From positions 96,001-160,000 of the IMG/VR virus record IMGVR_UViG_3300015214_000001: a DNA stretch of 64,000 bases. One strand, written 5' to 3'. A program made the position numbers and the translations under genes. The notes below the pieces were generated by a model that was not told the DNA's origin, did not search any database, and saw only the letters and a list, made by a program, of their open reading frames with translations. Shown in pieces: positions 14,890 to 37,671 of this stretch. The stretch is from a virus (lineage: Duplodnaviria > Caudoviricetes). How positions within the stretch are numbered: position 1 is the first letter of the stretch; each line of letters begins with the position of its first letter.

Positions 14890-15996
14890 GTGGTTGGCGT
14901 GGTAAACTATCCATTATGTTGCTTAACAGGATTTCATTTAAACATGAATAGGATAGTACAAGCTGATATAGTTGTTGCATCAACCCCAACGAAAAATCAA
15001 ATAAAGCTATCTCCCCAAGATTTTTACAAAACATTGCCACTCAAAGATAATGTAAGTAAGCAGATCAAGACGCGCATTAACCGCTTTAATGCGTGGCTAG
15101 TAGATAGTGGAAAGAACCTTTTTAACATGACGCTTTCCGAATATCGAGATTCATTGATTGAAGAAGGGCTATCAAACAAGACGATTTTAGCATATCTATC
15201 TACTATTCGGAGTGAATATGAGCGCGTTATTGAGAACCGAGAAATGCTATACCGTTATGCTGATGCTAATTTGCCTGATGGCACAAGTATGGCAGACCGC
15301 AAGGCATTTGTTGATGAAGTTGTTCACCGTATTAATCGAGCATTGAACCCTAAAAATTCAAAAGTAGATATTATCCATGAGCAAGATATGGCTGATGATA
15401 AACACATCAGACTAACAGAAGATGAAATTTTTCATTTACTAATGAGTCCAGACGTTAATACGATAACTGGAATTCGTGATCGCGCTATTATGGCACTGGC
15501 ATTAGCTTCTGGCTGTCGAGTGTCGGAGCTAGTCTCTGCAACAATTGATGATGTATTTAGTAAATATGGAAACTCACCTGCATTTCGTGTTTTAAGAGGG
15601 AAGGGTAAAAAGCAAAGATTTATTCCCTATGGTGGGTTAGTTGAATTGATCGACTTTGTAGATCACTGGCTAAATGTAGCTAACATTCAATCAGGCGCGG
15701 TTTTTAGGCGTGTGTTTAAAAATGATAAAATAGGTTGCAATCCATTGACTACCTACTCAATAGAATTAATATTATCGAAATATACTTTTATGCGGGATGG
15801 GAATTTACTTAACCCCACACCACATGATTTAAGGCGCACTTATGCGTTGCACAATTACTTAAATGGAATGGCGATTACTGAGATACAACAAAATTTAGGT
15901 CATGCCGATCAAAAGACGACGCTAGAATATATCGGCATCCTTAGTGCCGAGTTGCGAGCGCCACAACATATGTATGGATTAAATAAGCCTGAATGA
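14890..15996 (+). CDS. tyrosine recombinase/integrase (true start probably downstream)
   Basis: GCRVSEL, GKGKKQR, PHDLRRT, LGH, TTLEY catalytic residues. Confidence 0.93.
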   Translation: MVGVVNYPLCCLTGFHLNMNRIVQADIVVASTPTKNQIKLSPQDFYKTLPLKDNVSKQIKTRINRFNAWLVDSGKNLFNMTLSEYRDSLIEEGLSNKTILAYLSTIRSEYERVIENREMLYRYADANLPDGTSMADRKAFVDEVVHRINRALNPKNSKVDIIHEQDMADDKHIRLTEDEIFHLLMSPDVNTITGIRDRAIMALALASGCRVSELVSATIDDVFSKYGNSPAFRVLRGKGKKQRFIPYGGLVELIDFVDHWLNVANIQSGAVFRRVFKNDKIGCNPLTTYSIELILSKYTFMRDGNLLNPTPHDLRRTYALHNYLNGMAITEIQQNLGHADQKTTLEYIGILSAELRAPQHMYGLNKPE

Positions 15997-16938: not shown

Positions 16939-17784
16939 TTAAATAGATAACCCGCGCCTAATACGCGATGTAGCAATTGCAATATCATAAGGGATGGATA
17001 AGGTTTCCTCATTCCAAATAGCGCTATTTGTAGCAAGCAATCCAGATCGAACCATGTCATTCATAGGCTCATCTAATTGACCGATAGCCCATAGTTGCGG
17101 GTCACTCAATTTAGAGTGATGTTTTCTGCCATCTATGATGTTATCATCTCTTACTTCCCAATCTAAATCTAGTGGGTCAGCATTAGCGCCAATGAATACA
17201 CTTTCTGTTGGGCCTATCCTTCTTCTATCCTTAATACCTGTTCTCATGCTATATACTGAACCGAGATTGTTATGTCTGATTAAAGATGGGATCGTATGCC
17301 AACAATGCAATTTGTTTAATTTAAGGTAAGTTTCTAAAGCCCCATCGTCATGAAAATATTCATGACGAATATTCCATGATGCCCATTGAACAAAGTCATC
17401 AATTTGCTTAACTGGTTGTATAAGCGCACAAGCATTATGCACTAGATCAGTAACCAACCAATGCTTATCATGCGTATGACTTTGAGACATGACAGGGAAA
17501 TTATCACATAGAGATGCGGTACTTCCTAAGGGTAAGTATGCTAAAATGCTCGGAATACTTGCTAAGAAATTGTGGCATGGAATAATGTCATCTTGTAAGA
17601 CCATATGATAGTCTGCCGATGGATCATATGATGACCATGCACGTAATGATGTTTCAAGTATTCCTTCTGAGCGCTTATCTTCAATGACCTGCATCGAAGA
17701 AGTTTCTTCACCTAACAGCTTCAATGTTTCTTCTAGGCGACTCTTTCGCAGTGGGTGAGTAAATAATGAGATTGATAGCTTCAA
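16939..17784 (-). CDS. GT-A fold glycosyltransferase, paralog 2
   Basis: HMVLQDD, HDD, PSLIRH; clear paralog of 18790-19623. Confidence 0.75.
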   Translation of the reverse strand: MKLSISLFTHPLRKSRLEETLKLLGEETSSMQVIEDKRSEGILETSLRAWSSYDPSADYHMVLQDDIIPCHNFLASIPSILAYLPLGSTASLCDNFPVMSQSHTHDKHWLVTDLVHNACALIQPVKQIDDFVQWASWNIRHEYFHDDGALETYLKLNKLHCWHTIPSLIRHNNLGSVYSMRTGIKDRRRIGPTESVFIGANADPLDLDWEVRDDNIIDGRKHHSKLSDPQLWAIGQLDEPMNDMVRSGLLATNSAIWNEETLSIPYDIAIATSRIRRGLSI

Positions 17785-17826
17785 GTGATATACCTTATAT
17801 GTTTATTTACTATCAATCTCATTATA

Positions 17827-18788
17827 TCATGTGAGAGCCATTCTATACCATGTTACACTTTGTCTATAGCTTAGTATGGAGATGTTACTGCTGATTAAAT
17901 TATCCACACCAAAGTGAAAAATTGTATTTCCAGGGCTTGCTCTAAATGGGATACTTCCGCTTAGCGTCGCTATATATCCATTCTGCGAGTAATCACTCCC
18001 ATTGTAGCTATGTCCCATAATAGCCACATCATCAGTTGGATATGGTGTTATATTGCCGCCATCCCCCATGTCTTGAATTGTAAAAGTCAAACGTGCTGCG
18101 GCTGACTGTTGTCCTATTCCAGCACTGCCAAAATCTAAGAACACAGTAACATTAGCAATGCCGATGATGTTTGCACCTAATACAAGAACATTACTAGGTG
18201 TTCTTGGACATGCTTGCCAGAAATTATTATTAGCAGACACATAGTAATTTGTGATGTCGTCGTTGCCAGTTATTGTTGGGGTGGAATATACATCGAGTAG
18301 ACTAGGTATAGATAAAGCATGTCGCCAGTCCCCAGGTTCTTCATCTGGATCATATGGGTCTAATACAATCGGCGTATCATTATATGTGTGCATTGCTGTA
18401 ATTTGGTTGAATGAGTTGACTACATAGAGGTCATTGTTATAGACCAGTGTTTGACCTTCAATCGGAGGCTCTGATATACTAAAGCTGCCTATATCAGAAA
18501 TCCAAATATCCTCTAAGTCAGAACCTTTCAATTGCCGATTGTACCATGTCGTGCCATTATAAAGTAACGCATCGTTATACGACGGATTGCTGATTTCAAC
18601 ATCGGTTAAATCGGCTAAAGAGGAAGCGCCGCCACTACCCCCCCCGTAAGGGGAATTACTGAGCCGTCATCGAAAACAGCCCATACGCCTTTATTGCGAA
18701 TGAATATCCTCGCTTGCCCACTACTAGGGGTAGATGGTGTATTGCTAATGTTCGGATATTCAATATATGTATCAGTTAACTTTGCCAT
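17827..18788 (-). CDS. fibre/receptor-binding paralog C, frameshifted at G8 (18638-18645)
   Basis: MAKLTDTYIEYP..GQARIFIRN..FDDGSVIPLTGG, then in another frame SGGASSLADLTDVEISNP running into ORF 17827-18531. Confidence 0.75.
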
Positions 18789-20466
18789 GCTACTGTTCTC
18801 CTCTAGGCTTTTTAATCATAGCTTCTTGGTATGAAATTCTTAAACTATCATCATTCCATATTAAACTGTTTATTGATTTTAACATAGTTTCTTGTTTAGA
18901 ATCGAGAACCACTTCGCCAATTGCCCATCTCTGACCTATATTTAGTTCTGTATAAGGTCTTGTGTAATGAACATTATAATTCGCAGTAGACCAATCAACT
19001 TGCGTAATATCTACGCCTTTACCGATCCAGTTAAACTCAGTAGGAAGGGCTGACCGTTTATCTTGTATCCCACTAACCATACTATGGACTGAACCTTGAT
19101 TGTCATGCCTAACTAACTGGGGAAGGGTATGCCAGCATGTTTTATCATGTTTCTTTAGATACATATCTAACCTTAAATCGTCATGAAAATACTCAGGCCT
19201 AACATGCCGATTATTCCACTCCACAAAATGCTTTATCTGGCTAACAGGCTGCAATAATGCACAAGCATTATGTACAGCACTAATAACAAGCCAATGTTTA
19301 TTTTTACGAACAACATCGTTCATAACTGGAAAATTATCACAGAAAGATACAGTTGCATCTGATGGTAAGCTGCCGATAACTGATGGGAGATGCTTTACAA
19401 AATTGTCACATAGCAATGCGTCATCTTGCAAGACTAAGTGATATTGTGCGCTAATATCAAAAGATAACCAAGCGCGAGATGCTGTTTCCCATATCCCATC
19501 GCAGTTTCTATCTACAACAATACTTACTTGCCCTATATCAATCTGCGAGGATAGATCATCAATTAAGGCAAGTAAGCGGCTGTGCCGACTAGGGTGCGTC
19601 ATAACTGCTATAGAGAATAACATATATCTTATGGCGTACCTGGATTATAAACAGTGTCATCGCTATACCACATAATACTTGTTCTATAACCACTTATTTC
19701 GATGGTTTGGCTGCTTGAATAGTTGCTCAGTGAAAAATAAATAATTTCATTCGGGTCTCCACCAATAAATGGGACGCTGACAGATATGGGATATAGCTTT
19801 TGCTTTAAGGGTGATCCAGAGTAGCTATAATCACGCAACTCAAACACAGGCACTTCATTACTAAATGTAACAGGAGAAGGGGTATTCTGTGTATGAACAT
19901 TTAACGTTATATCATATATAGATTCATCCTCAGTCAAATCTATGAATAATAATATACTCAACACACCAGAGCGCATAGCTCGCTGATTATTGCTGCTTGA
20001 TTTAACCGATGTCAAAAACGCAGTAGATGATGCGCCGCTATTTAAAGGCTGTATGTTTGATCCATATGGAGAGCATGAATAAGAGCCATTGTTAGTATCT
20101 ATTGGTAAGAATACTCGCCACAGCGGGTTCATGCTATCTTCCATAGAAGGAACTATAATTGGCGAACCGCTATATATATAATTAGCAGATAATGTCCAGT
20201 AGTGCGGCATCCACACGCCACCACCTTGACTGCCATAGAACATCAACATTTTTCCAGAATAACTGTTACTTGTATTTGTTGTGTCAGTTAGTTCAGACAA
20301 GCTGGTCTGAAGGTAGAGGTTTCCAGATTTCCACTTTTCATCTGCTTCATCATATATCAACACCTGTCCATTATATGGTTCGGTTATTTCAACATCGGTT
20401 AAATCGGCTAAAGAGGAAGCGCCGCCACTACCCCCCCGTAAGGGAAATTACTGAGCCATCATCGAA
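18593..20466. repeat. about 82-bp near-identical direct repeat (18593-18674, 20386-20466) containing the poly-G tract
   Basis: Differ only by tract length and 2 substitutions. Confidence 0.9.
18790..19623 (-). CDS. GT-A fold glycosyltransferase, paralog 1
   Basis: HLVLQDDA, HDD, PQLVRH. Confidence 0.75.
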   Translation of the reverse strand: MLFSIAVMTHPSRHSRLLALIDDLSSQIDIGQVSIVVDRNCDGIWETASRAWLSFDISAQYHLVLQDDALLCDNFVKHLPSVIGSLPSDATVSFCDNFPVMNDVVRKNKHWLVISAVHNACALLQPVSQIKHFVEWNNRHVRPEYFHDDLRLDMYLKKHDKTCWHTLPQLVRHDNQGSVHSMVSGIQDKRSALPTEFNWIGKGVDITQVDWSTANYNVHYTRPYTELNIGQRWAIGEVVLDSKQETMLKSINSLIWNDDSLRISYQEAMIKKPRGEQ

Positions 20467-20580
20467 TATAGCATTAACGGTTTTATTGTTTCTGATATAA
20501 AGGCGGGCCTGCCCACTATCTGGGGTTGATGGGGCAGAACCAATGGTAGGGTATTCTGTATAATCGTTTGTCAATCGCAT
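19629..20580 (-). CDS. fibre/receptor-binding paralog B, frameshifted at G7 (20431-20437)
   Basis: MRLTNDYTEYP..GQARLYIRNNKTVNAIFDDGSVISLTGG*, continuing in another frame SGGASSLADLTDVEITEPYNGQV into ORF 19629-20363. Confidence 0.75.
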
Positions 20581-20659: not shown

Positions 20660-21589
20660 CTAAAAATAATCATTTCTACCTAAATACCAGTCTATATGAA
20701 CGCGGTATTTATTAATTTTCATTTGTGCGCCATTGAAATTACTAAATGAAAAGTACGCGATTGTATTATTACTATTAATTGCAAATGGAATTGTAGCATT
20801 AATAGGTATTATTGTTGGACTATGGGCGGGATTTCCACCTGCATTATAAGGAAAGCCTCCATGCACTCGTTGAGCATTGCTAAATGTGACAACGCCACCA
20901 TCACTGCTATCTTGTAGATGAAAATCTACACTAAACATCGGATTATTATTGCTGTCACTATCCACTTCCATGCTTAATGTAGCTATGCCGTAGCTCATTA
21001 TATTATCGCCACCCCTGACTGGCGAACACCAAAAAGCCATATTATTACCATCAATAAATTCATCATCGCCATCTGATGGCGAGTTAGTATAATAAAAATC
21101 ATTTGATGATAAATTGGTGTCAATTTGCAACTGAACGCGCCAATCTGTTTCCATGCTATCATAACTCGGGATTGATAGTGGGCTGCCCATATAGATATAT
21201 GATCCAAACAGAGACATCCTTTTCAATACATAAGCGCTTTCATTATCGCTGTAAATTAACGCTGAACCATGTGGTCTAGGAAACGACACTACATCATTTA
21301 AATCATCAATTCTTCGCGGAGTAGTTTGTGCTATCCATGTAGAATTGTTGTCATCATAAGTTAATACATCGTTTGTTGCAGGTGAAGATATGTTGACATC
21401 AGTCAAATCTGATAGTGCCGTTGCGCCACCACTCCCGCCACCAGATAAAACTATATTTGAACCATCATCAAATATAGCATTAACTGTTTTATTGTTTCTG
21501 ATATAAAGGCGTGCTTGTCCAGCATCTGGGGTTGATGGGGCAGAATCAATCGTAGGCAATTCAATTAGTTCATTTGTAAATTTAGCCAT
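20660..21589 (-). CDS. fibre/receptor-binding paralog A (intact)
   Basis: Same N-terminal module, LSDLTDV..DVLTY..W fibre repeats, beta-rich C-terminal domain; paralog of 32675-33622 in the tail cluster. Confidence 0.75.
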   Translation of the reverse strand: MAKFTNELIELPTIDSAPSTPDAGQARLYIRNNKTVNAIFDDGSNIVLSGGGSGGATALSDLTDVNISSPATNDVLTYDDNNSTWIAQTTPRRIDDLNDVVSFPRPHGSALIYSDNESAYVLKRMSLFGSYIYMGSPLSIPSYDSMETDWRVQLQIDTNLSSNDFYYTNSPSDGDDEFIDGNNMAFWCSPVRGGDNIMSYGIATLSMEVDSDSNNNPMFSVDFHLQDSSDGGVVTFSNAQRVHGGFPYNAGGNPAHSPTIIPINATIPFAINSNNTIAYFSFSNFNGAQMKINKYRVHIDWYLGRNDYF

Positions 21590-21667
21590 TCCTATAATAG
21601 CTCCATATTATCTTTTTAACGATATATGAAGCTATTATACCATCTATATTTATAAATAGTTTACAAG

Positions 21668-23233
21668 TTAGAAGCTATCCCAACTGGCTTTAAACGCATT
21701 TGAAACCATTGTACGCTCTTTATTATCGTCTCCGATAATTTTTATGCCTTCTTCTTCTGTATATGATGAACGCTTCATATAACCAGTAACGGCATCAATA
21801 TAAGCAGAAAACCCGCCATCTTTTGTTCTGAACAAATATTTAGGGATGTTGGCTTCTAAAATTTGCTTTTCATATTGTTCTGCAAGCACAGTATCAACGC
21901 TGATTGCAGGCATCTTTCCTTGATCTTTTAATTCATGGATAACGTCCAACCACCAATCATGATTTTTAGGCTCTACTTCATCTCCGCGACCAGTGTATTT
22001 ATATCCAAGCAGAGTAACCTTTAAATCACTTTCTTCTGCTTGGGTAAGTAACTCTGCAAATTCTTCACGAGTATGCAACCCCATAACGACATGAATGTTA
22101 ACAAATTGAGATGCTCTCCATCCCGCTGGTTTGATTTTTTCTTCCACTAGCTTAATGGCTTGTGGGGTATCGGCGCTATAAGCAAATGATCCGATTAAAT
22201 CAAGAATTGTTTCTCTTTTCTTGCTATCCTCTAACCACTTCAAATTGCGTGTGGTGAAGTTAGGAATAATCCCCTTACTACGAATGTATTTCAAGATCGG
22301 TATAAAACTAGGGTGGAGTGTCGGCTCACCACCTCCAATGGCAATCTCAAATACCTGATGTTCTGCCATCGCATCAACCAAACTATAAATATCACTTGCT
22401 AATGCGTGACTGCCTTTGCGAGTTGATCCCATGTAACAAAATGGGCAATCATATGGACAATAGTCAGTGATCTTCATATCAACCAGTTCAGGCGCAAATG
22501 CTTTATCTGGAACTAGAGCAGGGTAGTTATTACTATCATATTCTCTAGTGAAATGGTGCAGCAAGCTATCATCATCTTGGAATGAAAAGCTAATCTTTGA
22601 ACCATTGTAAGGGTTAAACAGCGTCCAGTAATTACTGACCTCATCATACCGAGCTATTACGCCATGTGATGGCTCTGATACTGGCATTCGGATATTAGGC
22701 TTACCATTTGTAACATAATCCATATCTCCACCATTATCGTTTCCGCCGATAATATGAACATCAGGACGTAGAACAAGATTTGTTAGCTCTTTGAAAAACT
22801 GCTCATGATAATGTGACGACTTAGACCCAATAGCTTTAGGTAAACTCACCACAGATTGATGGTCAATGTAAGCATCAATCTCGCCATGCTTGTCTCTATC
22901 CAACAACAAATTGAAGGTCTTTTTCATGATTTTATCTTGTTGCTTTTCTGGCAGATGCCTAATAGCTTGATACAAAATAATAGCAAGGTAGTGTTTCTTT
23001 TCTCTGCTATTATCTAAGATAAATTCATCCCAACCAAATTCACCTTCTACGCACTCACCATTCACAATGTCACGATCATATTCAGCGTGTGATCCATTGA
23101 AAATGAGACTATGGCTTGATGAGCTATTGGTCGCAAATCCTGACTGCCTGATATTGTGTATCAAGATATGTATATTTTCATTGACAACTTGTTTTGAAAT
23201 TTCTTGTTCGATGCTCACTCTGAAATGCTCCAT
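21668..23233 (-). CDS. radical SAM protein with N-terminal GFATNSSS domain
   Basis: CPYDCPFC, GGGEPTLH, NFTT. Confidence 0.9.
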   Translation of the reverse strand: MEHFRVSIEQEISKQVVNENIHILIHNIRQSGFATNSSSSHSLIFNGSHAEYDRDIVNGECVEGEFGWDEFILDNSREKKHYLAIILYQAIRHLPEKQQDKIMKKTFNLLLDRDKHGEIDAYIDHQSVVSLPKAIGSKSSHYHEQFFKELTNLVLRPDVHIIGGNDNGGDMDYVTNGKPNIRMPVSEPSHGVIARYDEVSNYWTLFNPYNGSKISFSFQDDDSLLHHFTREYDSNNYPALVPDKAFAPELVDMKITDYCPYDCPFCYMGSTRKGSHALASDIYSLVDAMAEHQVFEIAIGGGEPTLHPSFIPILKYIRSKGIIPNFTTRNLKWLEDSKKRETILDLIGSFAYSADTPQAIKLVEEKIKPAGWRASQFVNIHVVMGLHTREEFAELLTQAEESDLKVTLLGYKYTGRGDEVEPKNHDWWLDVIHELKDQGKMPAISVDTVLAEQYEKQILEANIPKYLFRTKDGGFSAYIDAVTGYMKRSSYTEEEGIKIIGDDNKERTMVSNAFKASWDSF

Positions 23234-27227: not shown

Positions 27228-27303
27228 CCACGTTGAAGCACGCTGTTTATCTCTTGTATTGAAGATCAATAGCGTGCTTTATTGTATATTCAGGAGCTTT
27301 ACG

Positions 27304-28747
27304 TTGACAAATAACCCTCAATATGAAGATTTTCTGCGTTCTAAGAAACGTTATACAATAGCAAGAGGCTTTGAGGTTGATCCAGCACGACTAAACCCGA
27401 TGTTAAAACCATTCCAGCGAGACATTGTTCAATGGGCTTTATTGTTGGGGAAATCGGCTATTTTTGCTGCGGTTGGTCTTGGTAAAACATTTATGCAACT
27501 TGATTGGTCACACCGCGTAGCAAGTCAATTCGGGGGGGGGTGTTTTAATACTAGCACCTCTAGGTGTAGCGCATCAGACGACAGAAGAAGGTAAGAAGTT
27601 TGGGTATCATATACCTTATGTCCAAGATCAAGATGAGTATGATAGGTGTGGTAGCTTAGTTGCTATTACGAATTATGATCGAGTTGATAACTTTTTGCCT
27701 CATAAGTTTATCGGTGTTGTGCTAGACGAATCCTCAATTCTTAAGAATTACTCAGGATCAACCAAGAACAAAATCATTGATATGTTTAAAGACTTACCTT
27801 ACAAGTTATGTTGCTCTGCCACCCCTGCACCAAATGACCACGTAGAATTAGGAAACCACGCTGAATTTTTAGATATTATGAGTAGTCAGAGCATGTTGGC
27901 TACATATTTCATCAATGACCGCAGTAAAACAGGTGTGTATCGGCTCAAAAACCACGCTAGAGATGCCTTTTGGGAATGGTTGACATCGTGGGCTGTTTGT
28001 ATTCGCAAGCCATCTGACTTAGGAGAAGGTTATAGCGATGAAGGTTACATATTGCCTGAATTGCGTTATGTAGATCACCATATCGGCTTTAATGATATGA
28101 CCATTCAGGAAGCATGGGCAGAAGGAAAATTACTTCCTGATACAGCTCCTAGTAGCTCAGAACTGGGACGAGTTAAGCGAAAAACAATTCAAGAGCGCGT
28201 GGATGTAACAAAGAGCATTGTTGAATCTTATGGCAATAAGCAGTCGATTATCATTTGGTGCTTATTGAATGACGAACAGGACGCACTAGAAAAAGCCCTA
28301 CCCCACGCCATATCGGTTCGTGGCAGTGATAAGCCACAAGAGAAGATTAGGAAGTTGCGCGAATTTAAGGATGGCAACTGTCCAATCATATCTAAGACAT
28401 CTATTGTTGGCGCAGGCATGAATTGGCAACACGCACCAATAACAATTTTTGTGAGTAGCAATTATAGTTTTGAAAGCCAACATCAGGCTATTGGTAGAAA
28501 TTACCGATATGGGCAAACCGAGAATGTAGATGTTCATATCATTTATTCAGAAGCAGAAGGTAATGTATTCACTGCATTAGCTCAAAAGCAAGAGCAATTT
28601 AATGCAATGCAAGAAGAAATGACAACAGCAATGCGTCGATATGGTTTGTTTAGAAGTTCTAAGACAGCACCTATTTATAATCCGCTTGGCGATCAAGAAA
28701 TGATAATTCCCTCTTGGTTGACATCACATATTGAATTTGCAGAATAA
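27304..28747 (+). CDS. SF2 (SNF2-like) helicase, frameshifted at G9 (27532-27540)
   Basis: Walker A GLGKT before the tract; VLILAP, DESS, SATP, GMNWQ, QAIGRNYRYGQ after it in another frame; G8 restores one ORF. Confidence 0.85.
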
Positions 28748-32674: not shown

Positions 32675-33622
32675 CTAAAGTTGTTCTCTAGCGCTATACC
32701 AAGTGATATTCTGCGTGTAGCTTAATATTGAAAATGAGTTTGACGTGTAATTTGCTATGAATAGGTATAAACCGACATCATTTTGTTGGCTATAGAATGG
32801 AACGTTAACATTAACTGCATATTTATATTGCTCGGCATATTCAGGGTACTCAGGAGGATAATATTCCGCAACATAATTGACTAGTTGAGCATTACTCATA
32901 TCAATATCCGAGTCGTGATCTTGTATTTTAAAATATATCCCAAATGTGACTGAGCTTCCACCACTAGGCAATGATAAAAGTATGTTTGCCTGTATATTGC
33001 CAAAGTTAGTATAGGGTAATATAGGCCCATTCCCGTCATCAGGCATTGCACGCCATACAGTAGTACCATCTATTTCTGTAATAAACGTATTGTTTGAACC
33101 GTTGATAATTGAATGCCTTAAAGTACCGTTATTCGAATCAGGCTGTAACACAACCTTCCAGTTCTCATTCATGCTATCATACGTAGGGATAGAAATTGGC
33201 GATGATCCGAAGTTATCGTAATAACCGCTGCCTAAAATATATCTATTACTCCACCCATTAGATATAGAGTCTTGCGTGACAACTAACGCCTCACCAATTC
33301 TAATAAGTGTAGTTGCCACGTCATTAAGCTCTTCTAGTTGGTTTGGTGGCTTAGGTGTGTTATACCAAGTATCAGTAAGAGCGTCATAACTTAATATATT
33401 TCCATCTTGCGGCGATGCGATGTCTACATCATCTAAATCAGCAAGACTTCCCCCACTTCCGCTCCCCCCACCACTGAGGTTAGTCACTGTCCCATTGTCA
33501 AAAATAACATTTACAGTTTTATTGTTACGAATAAACAACCTAGCTTGTCCCGCGTCAGGAGTTGGTGGATTAACGCTTTGCTCTGATAACTCGATATTGA
33601 TGTCAGTTACTTTTGTTGTCAT
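32675..33622 (-). CDS. fibre/receptor-binding paralog D (intact; G6 in linker)
   Basis: PTPDAGQARLFIRNNKTVNVIFDNG, LADLDDV..DGNILSY..W. Confidence 0.75.
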   Translation of the reverse strand: MTTKVTDINIELSEQSVNPPTPDAGQARLFIRNNKTVNVIFDNGTVTNLSGGGSGSGGSLADLDDVDIASPQDGNILSYDALTDTWYNTPKPPNQLEELNDVATTLIRIGEALVVTQDSISNGWSNRYILGSGYYDNFGSSPISIPTYDSMNENWKVVLQPDSNNGTLRHSIINGSNNTFITEIDGTTVWRAMPDDGNGPILPYTNFGNIQANILLSLPSGGSSVTFGIYFKIQDHDSDIDMSNAQLVNYVAEYYPPEYPEYAEQYKYAVNVNVPFYSQQNDVGLYLFIANYTSNSFSILSYTQNITWYSAREQL

Positions 33623-37005: not shown

Positions 37006-37671
37006 TTAATAATCCTCAGTCATAACATTTCCATCAGCGTCTACTAATACTTCCCCATCTGCTGTTAATATTAAGTTTGCAGGGAAGTGTATGGCCCATT
37101 TCATACCAAGTGTTTCATTGCTATCTACTACTAATGCAAGATCATCATTACCAACTGGTAAACGGTTAAATAAACTGCCGTTACTAGCCATAATGTCGCC
37201 TTTAGCTTGGGTGAATTGTGCGACATCGACCAGATCACCAAGTGCGCTTACTTTTATTGCGGGTATCCATTGCCCTGATATGATGTCATACGCAATAGTT
37301 CTACCATCTGCAACGCCTGTTACGTTCACATCCAATAATTGACTAAAGTTTCTGGGAATAGCACTTGCTTGCCATAAACCAGTCGCACTGTTATAAGTCA
37401 GAACTTGCCCATTTTGTGCTGCTATGACATCAACGTCTGTCAGATCATTTAGCGTGGTTGCGCCACCCCCCCCCCCACCTGATGAAAATTGTATCCAAGC
37501 ATCGCCATCAGCATTGGTAAGATATAAAGCGCCATTTCCATCCGTGCCACCATCAGCAGCCCAATATACATCCCCGAAGCCTTCGGGGACAGGTGGTAAC
37601 GCAACATCCTCACCACCATCTAGCCGCGATTTATGTAATGTATTAAATGGCAAACTATCGTGAAAAGGCAT
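37006..37671 (-). CDS. fibre connector protein with in-frame G11 tract (37466-37476)
   Basis: SSGGGGG linker followed by LNDLTDV..NGQVLTY..W repeats. Confidence 0.65.
   Translation of the reverse strand: MPFHDSLPFNTLHKSRLDGGEDVALPPVPEGFGDVYWAADGGTDGNGALYLTNADGDAWIQFSSGGGGGGATTLNDLTDVDVIAAQNGQVLTYNSATGLWQASAIPRNFSQLLDVNVTGVADGRTIAYDIISGQWIPAIKVSALGDLVDVAQFTQAKGDIMASNGSLFNRLPVGNDDLALVVDSNETLGMKWAIHFPANLILTADGEVLVDADGNVMTEDY

Follow-up and report, generated by a model that had tools for sequence, protein, structure and literature searches.

In an uncultivated jumbo phage from landfill, two tail-fibre-like genes are each broken in frame at a run of G residues, and we consider it probable that these runs are contingency loci at which slippage-driven ON/OFF variation of accessory fibres hedges host recognition. 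The two genes, called fibre genes B and C here, lie in a stretch of 64,000 nucleotides (the window), which corresponds to bases 96,001–160,000 of the IMG/VR virus record IMGVR_UViG_3300015214_000001. The complete record is 208,458 bp long, has direct terminal repeats and a GC content of 39.5%, and is estimated to be complete. Slippage-driven ON/OFF variation is supported for B; for C we infer it only, because the run of C has eight G residues (G8) in all four assemblies compared.

Both genes are read from the minus strand. Fibre gene B (19629–20580) begins with an N-terminal module (20431–20580) translated from an ATG at 20580, which ends as ACG-GGG-GGG-TAG at a run of seven G residues (G7, 20431–20437), the TAG lying directly after the run. 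The linker, the fibre repeat and the head follow in another frame (19629–20432), which is open for 267 codons. In fibre gene C (17827–18788), the N-terminal module (18639–18788) is translated from an ATG at 18788 into a G8 run (18638–18645) and meets a stop seven codons further on, and the distal part lies in another frame (17827–18639) that is open for 270 codons. Both tracts are in the OFF state in the window, and a length of G6 or G9 rejoins both genes, giving 335 open codons for B and 328 for C. The first-pass annotation had described the G7/G8 split of the two genes, with its coordinates and its rescue by G6 or G9, and the minus-strand sequence confirmed all of it.

The distal frames of B and C align residue for residue with the linker, the fibre repeat and the C-terminal domain of two intact relatives, fibres A and D. 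A stop-free frame of this length has a chance of ∼2e-8 in each gene, and none of 20,000 shuffles remained open. Because the distal frames are intact over 267 and 270 codons, the genes have not decayed; their anatomy and the integrity of their distal frames are established. Fibre A (20660–21589, minus strand, 309 amino acids (aa)) has mixed Gly codons and no G run, and fibre D (32675–33622, minus strand, 315 aa) has an in-frame G6 at 33464–33469, the lack of a run in A and the in-frame G6 of D having been annotated earlier. The four proteins are 61–76% identical over their N-terminal ∼50 aa versus 31–38% over their distal parts, which bears out the earlier description of four paralogs with one N-terminal module, a Gly linker and divergent distal parts. 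These comparisons support the assignment of A–D as fibre-like paralogs sharing that module.

We compared the window with the Logan contigs of two public landfill metagenome runs, X1 (2018) and X2 (2019), which come from two studies, over 19,991 bases; the states of further contigs from ENA and JGI were read from their called proteins. The B tract (20431) is G7 in the window and in X2, and G6, in frame, in X1. A second tract, at 27532, is G9 in the window and in X1 and G8 in X2. Positions 20839 and 20857 in gene A are C in the window and X1 and T in X2, and position 37471 lies in a run of fibre-repeat gene E that is G11 in the window and G5-C-G5 in both public runs. G tracts account for 0.26% of the bases and for three of these five variable sites (P = 1.7e-7); their mutability is far above that of the remaining sequence. 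The C tract is G8 in the window, X1 and X2. The contigs spanning it begin just 23–24 nucleotides (nt) before the run but include copy-specific flank, so its length is unambiguous.

The called proteins gave the same picture of B. An ENA contig of 208,473 bp has the window's haplotype in A and encodes an in-frame B protein of 316 aa (P0004; ...TGGSGG..., G6), with C and the helicase gene at 27532 both split. A second ENA contig, of 205,306 bp, has a variant of A with two single-nucleotide polymorphisms (SNPs), split B and C genes, and a fused SNF2-like helicase of 480 aa. Two JGI contigs, for which the state of A was not assigned per contig, have B, C and the helicase split. The split B gene is called as a 244-aa open reading frame (ORF) on the 205,306-bp contig and on the two JGI contigs. 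Over the four assemblies, B is therefore G6 and in frame in one and G7, hence OFF, in three.

The B tract thus differs by one base between near-identical natural genomes, and the frame of the gene toggles with it. X1 and the window are the same at point positions over 20 kb (37471 being counted as a tract site) and unlike at the B tract, which establishes that B varies naturally between G6 and G7 where the background is otherwise the same, and indicates that the tract changes faster than point mutations accumulate. Either X1 and the window come from one sample, in which case both B alleles coexist there, or the tract changed without any SNP in 20 kb. The first-pass annotation had proposed a stochastic ON/OFF choice among the fibres; the G6/G7 difference between near-identical genomes agrees with that proposal for B, and the constant G8 in the four assemblies leaves C without such agreement.

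The tract at 27532–27540 (plus strand) provides a second natural ON/OFF difference within the 20 kb. Here, G9 splits an SNF2-like helicase gene into two (27259–27594 and 27695–28747), and G8, found in X2 and in the 205,306-bp ENA contig, gives the whole helicase, a 480-aa protein (P0272) with a Helicase_C domain. As a separate observation, and with 37471 again counted as a tract site, the point differences between assemblies in the 20 kb are limited to three nonsynonymous changes in the head of fibre A (Gly to Ser twice and Asn to Tyr; two SNPs are those at 20839 and 20857, and one more is found in protein P0009), a pattern that fits selection on a receptor-binding surface.

G tracts of this length are common throughout the genome. 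The record contains 42 G/C runs of at least seven, compared with ∼3 expected under a first-order model, and 39 of at least eight, compared with ∼0.6 expected. The distribution of run lengths is bimodal (10, 3, 29 and 9 runs with lengths of six, seven, eight and nine, respectively), and runs of G8–9 are ∼60-fold more common than expected. The second mode at 8–9, together with 39 runs where 0.6 would be expected, points to maintained tracts. There are ∼40 such tracts genome-wide, half of them in promoter spacers.

On the reading that we favor, the complete product of B or C would consist of the ∼50-aa N-terminal module, the Gly linker, one or two LxDLxDV repeats and a diverged TNF/C1q-like head. 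The module, which is common to the intact A and D, presumably docks on the tail. The Gly linker would be encoded by the G run, and slippage of the polymerase at replication would add or remove a G, presumably reversibly. A run of G6 or G9 would give the whole fibre, and at G7 or G8 translation would end just past the docking module. Every virion would bear A and D, with B, and probably C, added in subpopulations; the outcome would be bet-hedging on host recognition by means of contingency loci.

Several points weigh against this reading. The ON allele of B, G6, is the shorter and less slippery run. C is OFF at G8 in four of four assemblies, which record only split ORFs of 234 and 57 aa and no in-frame C protein, and C could be a recently silenced gene. 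The comparison covers consensus contigs from at most four assemblies and two studies, and the window may itself derive from the two runs. The libraries of the runs are not on record, which also counts in favor of sequencing error; the accuracy of the reads is judged from long mismatch-free contigs. The role of the products as fibres is drawn from remote homology and a middling structural model, in which the pLDDT (predicted local distance difference test score) is 63.5 and the best Z, 8.4, is near the tool background of 7–8. Finally, the dinucleotide TA lies directly 3′ of 33 of the 42 G/C runs of at least seven, against a background of 12% (P = 7e-23), suggesting some constraint for which slippage by itself does not account.

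The TA preference holds for runs with no TTGACA box upstream, where TA follows directly in 17 of 23. In the promoter tracts, the TA is the start of the −10 box (TAGAAT or TAAAAT). Within the window, the pattern is seen at 18638, 20431 and 31929, among other tracts, and both fibre tracts are a G run followed by TAG. The G8-TAG arrangement that the fibre tracts have in common with promoter tracts raised the possibility of an internal promoter at the fibre tracts, which is unsupported: no −35 box is present there, and TAGTGG is a poor −10 box.

The frame breaks could also belong to redundant paralogs that are being lost, the frameshifts being ordinary inactivation at an accidental hot spot and the G6/G7 difference of B a strain difference without adaptive reversible switching. 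We regard this as unlikely, although it has several facts in its favor: C is OFF in all assemblies and B in three of the four, the intact A and D could suffice, and a single shared 72-nt block brought the tract to both genes, which makes selection for two tracts needless. Loss would, however, have to proceed with no second lesion across 267 and 270 codons and with the motifs common to A, D and distant homologs kept to the C-terminus; moreover, B is ON on an SNP-identical background, and the ∼60-fold genome-wide excess of G8–9 runs is unlike accidents. An error of homopolymer sequencing or assembly, with true lengths in frame at both tracts, had been named by the first-pass annotation as the main alternative. 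Homopolymers are error-prone, and the G11 of the window in gene E was not reproduced in either run, so at least one tract call is doubtful somewhere. Nevertheless, independent assemblers give the same state per sample, which makes such an error unlikely: C is G8 in the Logan, ENA and JGI assemblies of at least two samples, and the state of B is matched by two assemblers per sample. The contigs have a depth of 15–25x with zero mismatches in 10 kb, and each tract is bridged by 31-mers specific to its own copy, which rules out a mixing of the two lengths through the B/C repeat. The platform also resolves the length in question, since exactly G8 is found at 29 tracts. We judge the probability of this explanation to be very low.

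Recoding would yield full-length fibres from the out-of-frame alleles, by ribosomal frameshifting (−1 on G_GGG_GGG in C and +1 at GGG-TAG in B) or by slippage of RNA polymerase. The C tract has the form of an X_XXY_YYZ heptamer and is correctly framed, and the run of B is followed immediately by a stop codon, as at the +1 frameshift site of prfB, where a stop codon lies at the shift site. Against these resemblances, no stable structure is found in the 88 nt after the tracts (z of +0.18 for C and +0.79 for B), and B and C would need opposite shifts at one shared sequence. Nor is the frame break fixed; because the in-frame G6 allele of B (P0004) exists in nature, recoding is not required. Slippage of this kind may operate at a low level, and as an account of the two genes recoding seems to us highly improbable.

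Both tracts lie in one nearly identical block of sequence. The linker block of C (18593–18665, minus strand, 73 nt) differs from that of B (20386–20457, 72 nt) by one SNP and the tract length only, and its coding sequence runs from the end of the module through the Gly linker into the start of the LADLTDVEI repeat. B is a mosaic of an A-like 5′ part and the C-like linker block. Because both tracts sit in this one block, they reached B and C by one recombination or duplication event; their common origin means that they are neither independent nor convergent placements.

Two other routes to fibre variation were considered and rejected. A diversity-generating retroelement was not supported, as the reverse transcriptase domain PF00078 was absent from the 208-kb record in a search that detected its controls. 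For inversion of the shufflon or Gin type, the sole relevant inverted repeat is 19 nt long with 2 mismatches (19999–20017 versus the linkers), which is near chance, and inversion at this repeat would cut the product short after ∼22 codons; B and C repeat each other in direct orientation. A tyrosine recombinase gene (14890–15996, plus strand; Phage_integrase, E value 4e-21) adjoins the cluster of fibre and glycosyltransferase genes; the search of the fibre genes for inversion sites was negative.

The identity of the fibres was examined by homology and by modeling. An exhaustive HMMER search returned 852 relatives, nearly all of which match the LxDLxDV...W repeat only, present in multiple copies in long phage fibre proteins; the whole fibre architecture is kept in a handful of relatives of ∼320 aa. 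The relatives matched by the profile carry Mtd_N, Phage_tail_C, PTR, head-fibre and S74 chaperone domains. Among cultured phages, the single tblastn match was a “putative tail protein” of Brevundimonas phage Gurke, and neither the fibres nor the glycosyltransferases had a match in Pfam or NCBIfam.

An AlphaFold model of A built from nine sequences had a pLDDT of 63.5 overall and of 79–87 over the N-terminal module, whereas a single-sequence model of B (pLDDT 35.8) was unusable. Residues 122–306 of A were modeled as a β-sandwich. In Foldseek this sandwich resembled TNF-like lectins, the PRD1 vertex protein P5, BclA, the needle knobs of Sf6 and HS1 and a short-fibre domain of a cyanophage at E values of ∼1e-4. 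It also matched C1q-domain phage proteins (E value 8e-9). The best VIA Z, 8.4 on a tool background of 7–8, was obtained with the receptor-binding protein (RBP) of lactococcal phage 1358 and PRD1 P5. Feature matches of fibre A in the ESM Atlas were all below 0.9 and were not used. The model suggests that the head of A is likely to be TNF/C1q-like, as in phage RBPs, and this fold is graded as likely rather than proven because the Z values are near the tool background.

B and C belong to a tightly packed row of minus-strand genes in the order A, B, GT1, C, GT2, of which A is the first gene of an accessory cluster. GT1 (18790–19623, 277 aa; phrog_854, E value 1.4e-14) and its paralog GT2 (16939–17784, 281 aa; phrog_854, E value 6.2e-15), which comes after fibre C, are putative glycosyltransferases. 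The family phrog_854 is annotated as “glucosyltransferase”; the GT1/GT2 family is widespread in phages and has a weak link to GT25, and a search of PDB sequences with GT1 gave chance matches only. The start of GT1 lies 5 nt past the stop of B (19624–19628) with no clear Shine-Dalgarno sequence, and the start of C lies 1 nt past the stop of GT1 (18789). From this spacing, the OFF state of B may also lower the expression of GT1, through lost coupling or polarity.

A broader version of this idea would make each tract a joint switch of a fibre-plus-glycosyltransferase cassette, within a network of ∼40 G8-TA tracts that the phage keeps or actively varies; we hold this to be doubtful. Under it, early termination at the hinge would mean that the ∼800 nt ahead of the abutting glycosyltransferase gene go untranslated and that this gene is expressed less, and the network would span promoters, DNA-modification genes, the helicase gene and the fibre genes. 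If it were true, the G8-TA network would be a viral counterpart of the bacterial phasevarion.

Two inverted repeats were noted in and around the cluster. The one between fibre C and GT2 (17763–17825) is perfect over 16 bp and has a loop of 31 nt, and the other, just upstream of fibre A (21593–21639), is 16 bp long with 94% complementarity; both are possible RNA hairpins or operon processing sites. Directly upstream of A is a gene for a radical SAM protein of 521 aa (21668–23233, minus strand), with an N-terminal extension of ∼240 aa that has no known function. Fibre D lies elsewhere, within the tail module, where it adjoins a gene for an 842-aa protein and is downstream of a tape-measure-like gene and a gene for a virion structural protein.

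Fibre-repeat gene E (37006–37671, minus strand, 221 aa) had been annotated with an in-frame G11, and in the window the run is indeed present in frame at 37466–37476. Both public runs have G5-C-G5 instead, a synonymous change from GGG to GGC. The G11 is either a variant private to the window assembly or an assembly error, and the interrupted G5-C-G5 form would be a locked-ON allele.

No relatives of the phage at the DNA level were obtained by megablast against phages, by peptide and DNA pattern scans of viral and metagenome contigs or by a search of a relatives index, all in collections that may lack near-identical records. The lineage markers Terminase_6N and a 541-aa virion protein had no match, so the phage was not placed.

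Phages are known to vary their receptor-binding parts by several devices. Mu and P1 join alternative distal fibre parts to a constant N-terminal part by site-specific inversion (Gin and the G segment, Cin and the C segment), so that a single phage stock has more than one host range. The phage described here likewise has one constant N-terminal part and alternative distal parts, but the proposed switch is a change of frame at a homopolymer, and no usable inverted repeats flank the distal parts. In Bordetella phage BPP-1, the tip protein Mtd is varied by a diversity-generating retroelement. Its programmed variation of a receptor-binding tip resembles the variation proposed here, and distant relatives of the present fibre family carry Mtd_N; here, in contrast, no reverse transcriptase was found, and the variation would be an on/off choice among ready-made heads rather than mutagenesis of a single head. 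Bacterial contingency loci include poly-G/C tracts in surface and glycosyltransferase genes of Campylobacter, Neisseria and Haemophilus (also described in PMC10877375). As proposed for B and C, slipped-strand mispairing at a coding G run toggles a surface-recognition gene, and the lengths (G7–G9) are the same; here, however, the carrier is a virus and the product a putative fibre of the virion.

To our knowledge, random on/off switching of RBPs by poly-G tracts has been demonstrated experimentally for Campylobacter phages only. According to later accounts of that work, RBP genes of Fletchervirus phages have G tracts of 7–11, and changes in their length produce subpopulations able to infect hosts without the usual receptor (Sorensen et al. 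2021, cited by PMC10877375, PMC11959909 and bioRxiv 10.1101/2025.10.21.683753). The two systems are alike in having G tracts within genes, several per genome, and in that a change of length alters RBP expression there and the frame of B here. They differ in that the present case is an unrelated 208-kb landfill phage of 39.5% GC, with no match to cultured phages and known from sequence alone; that the tract lies precisely where a presumed docking module common to four paralogs joins a variable head; and that the fibre genes alternate with glycosyltransferase genes in a genome with ∼40 tracts, half of them in promoter spacers. In coliphages T2 and T4, short homopolymers cause reversible frameshifts, interpreted as bet-hedging, and occur widely in genes of different functional classes (Gomez, Barrick & Waters, bioRxiv 10.1101/2025.10.21.683753). 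Most of these homopolymers are runs of at least six in genes such as agt and rIIA, unlike the G7–G8 runs in fibre genes found here, and in the BASEL coliphages such repeats are under-represented in tail-fibre genes (0.77x; bioRxiv 10.1101/2025.10.21.683753).

Taken together, the phage probably uses the same device as Fletchervirus, in an unrelated environmental jumbo phage, which suggests that contingency loci are a general means by which phages hedge their host range. When a phage assembly contains a frameshifted fibre gene, it should not be written off as a pseudogene or an error, and host-range predictions that rely on one consensus genome can be misleading. The common docking module and the interchangeable heads show the modularity of this phage's fibres.

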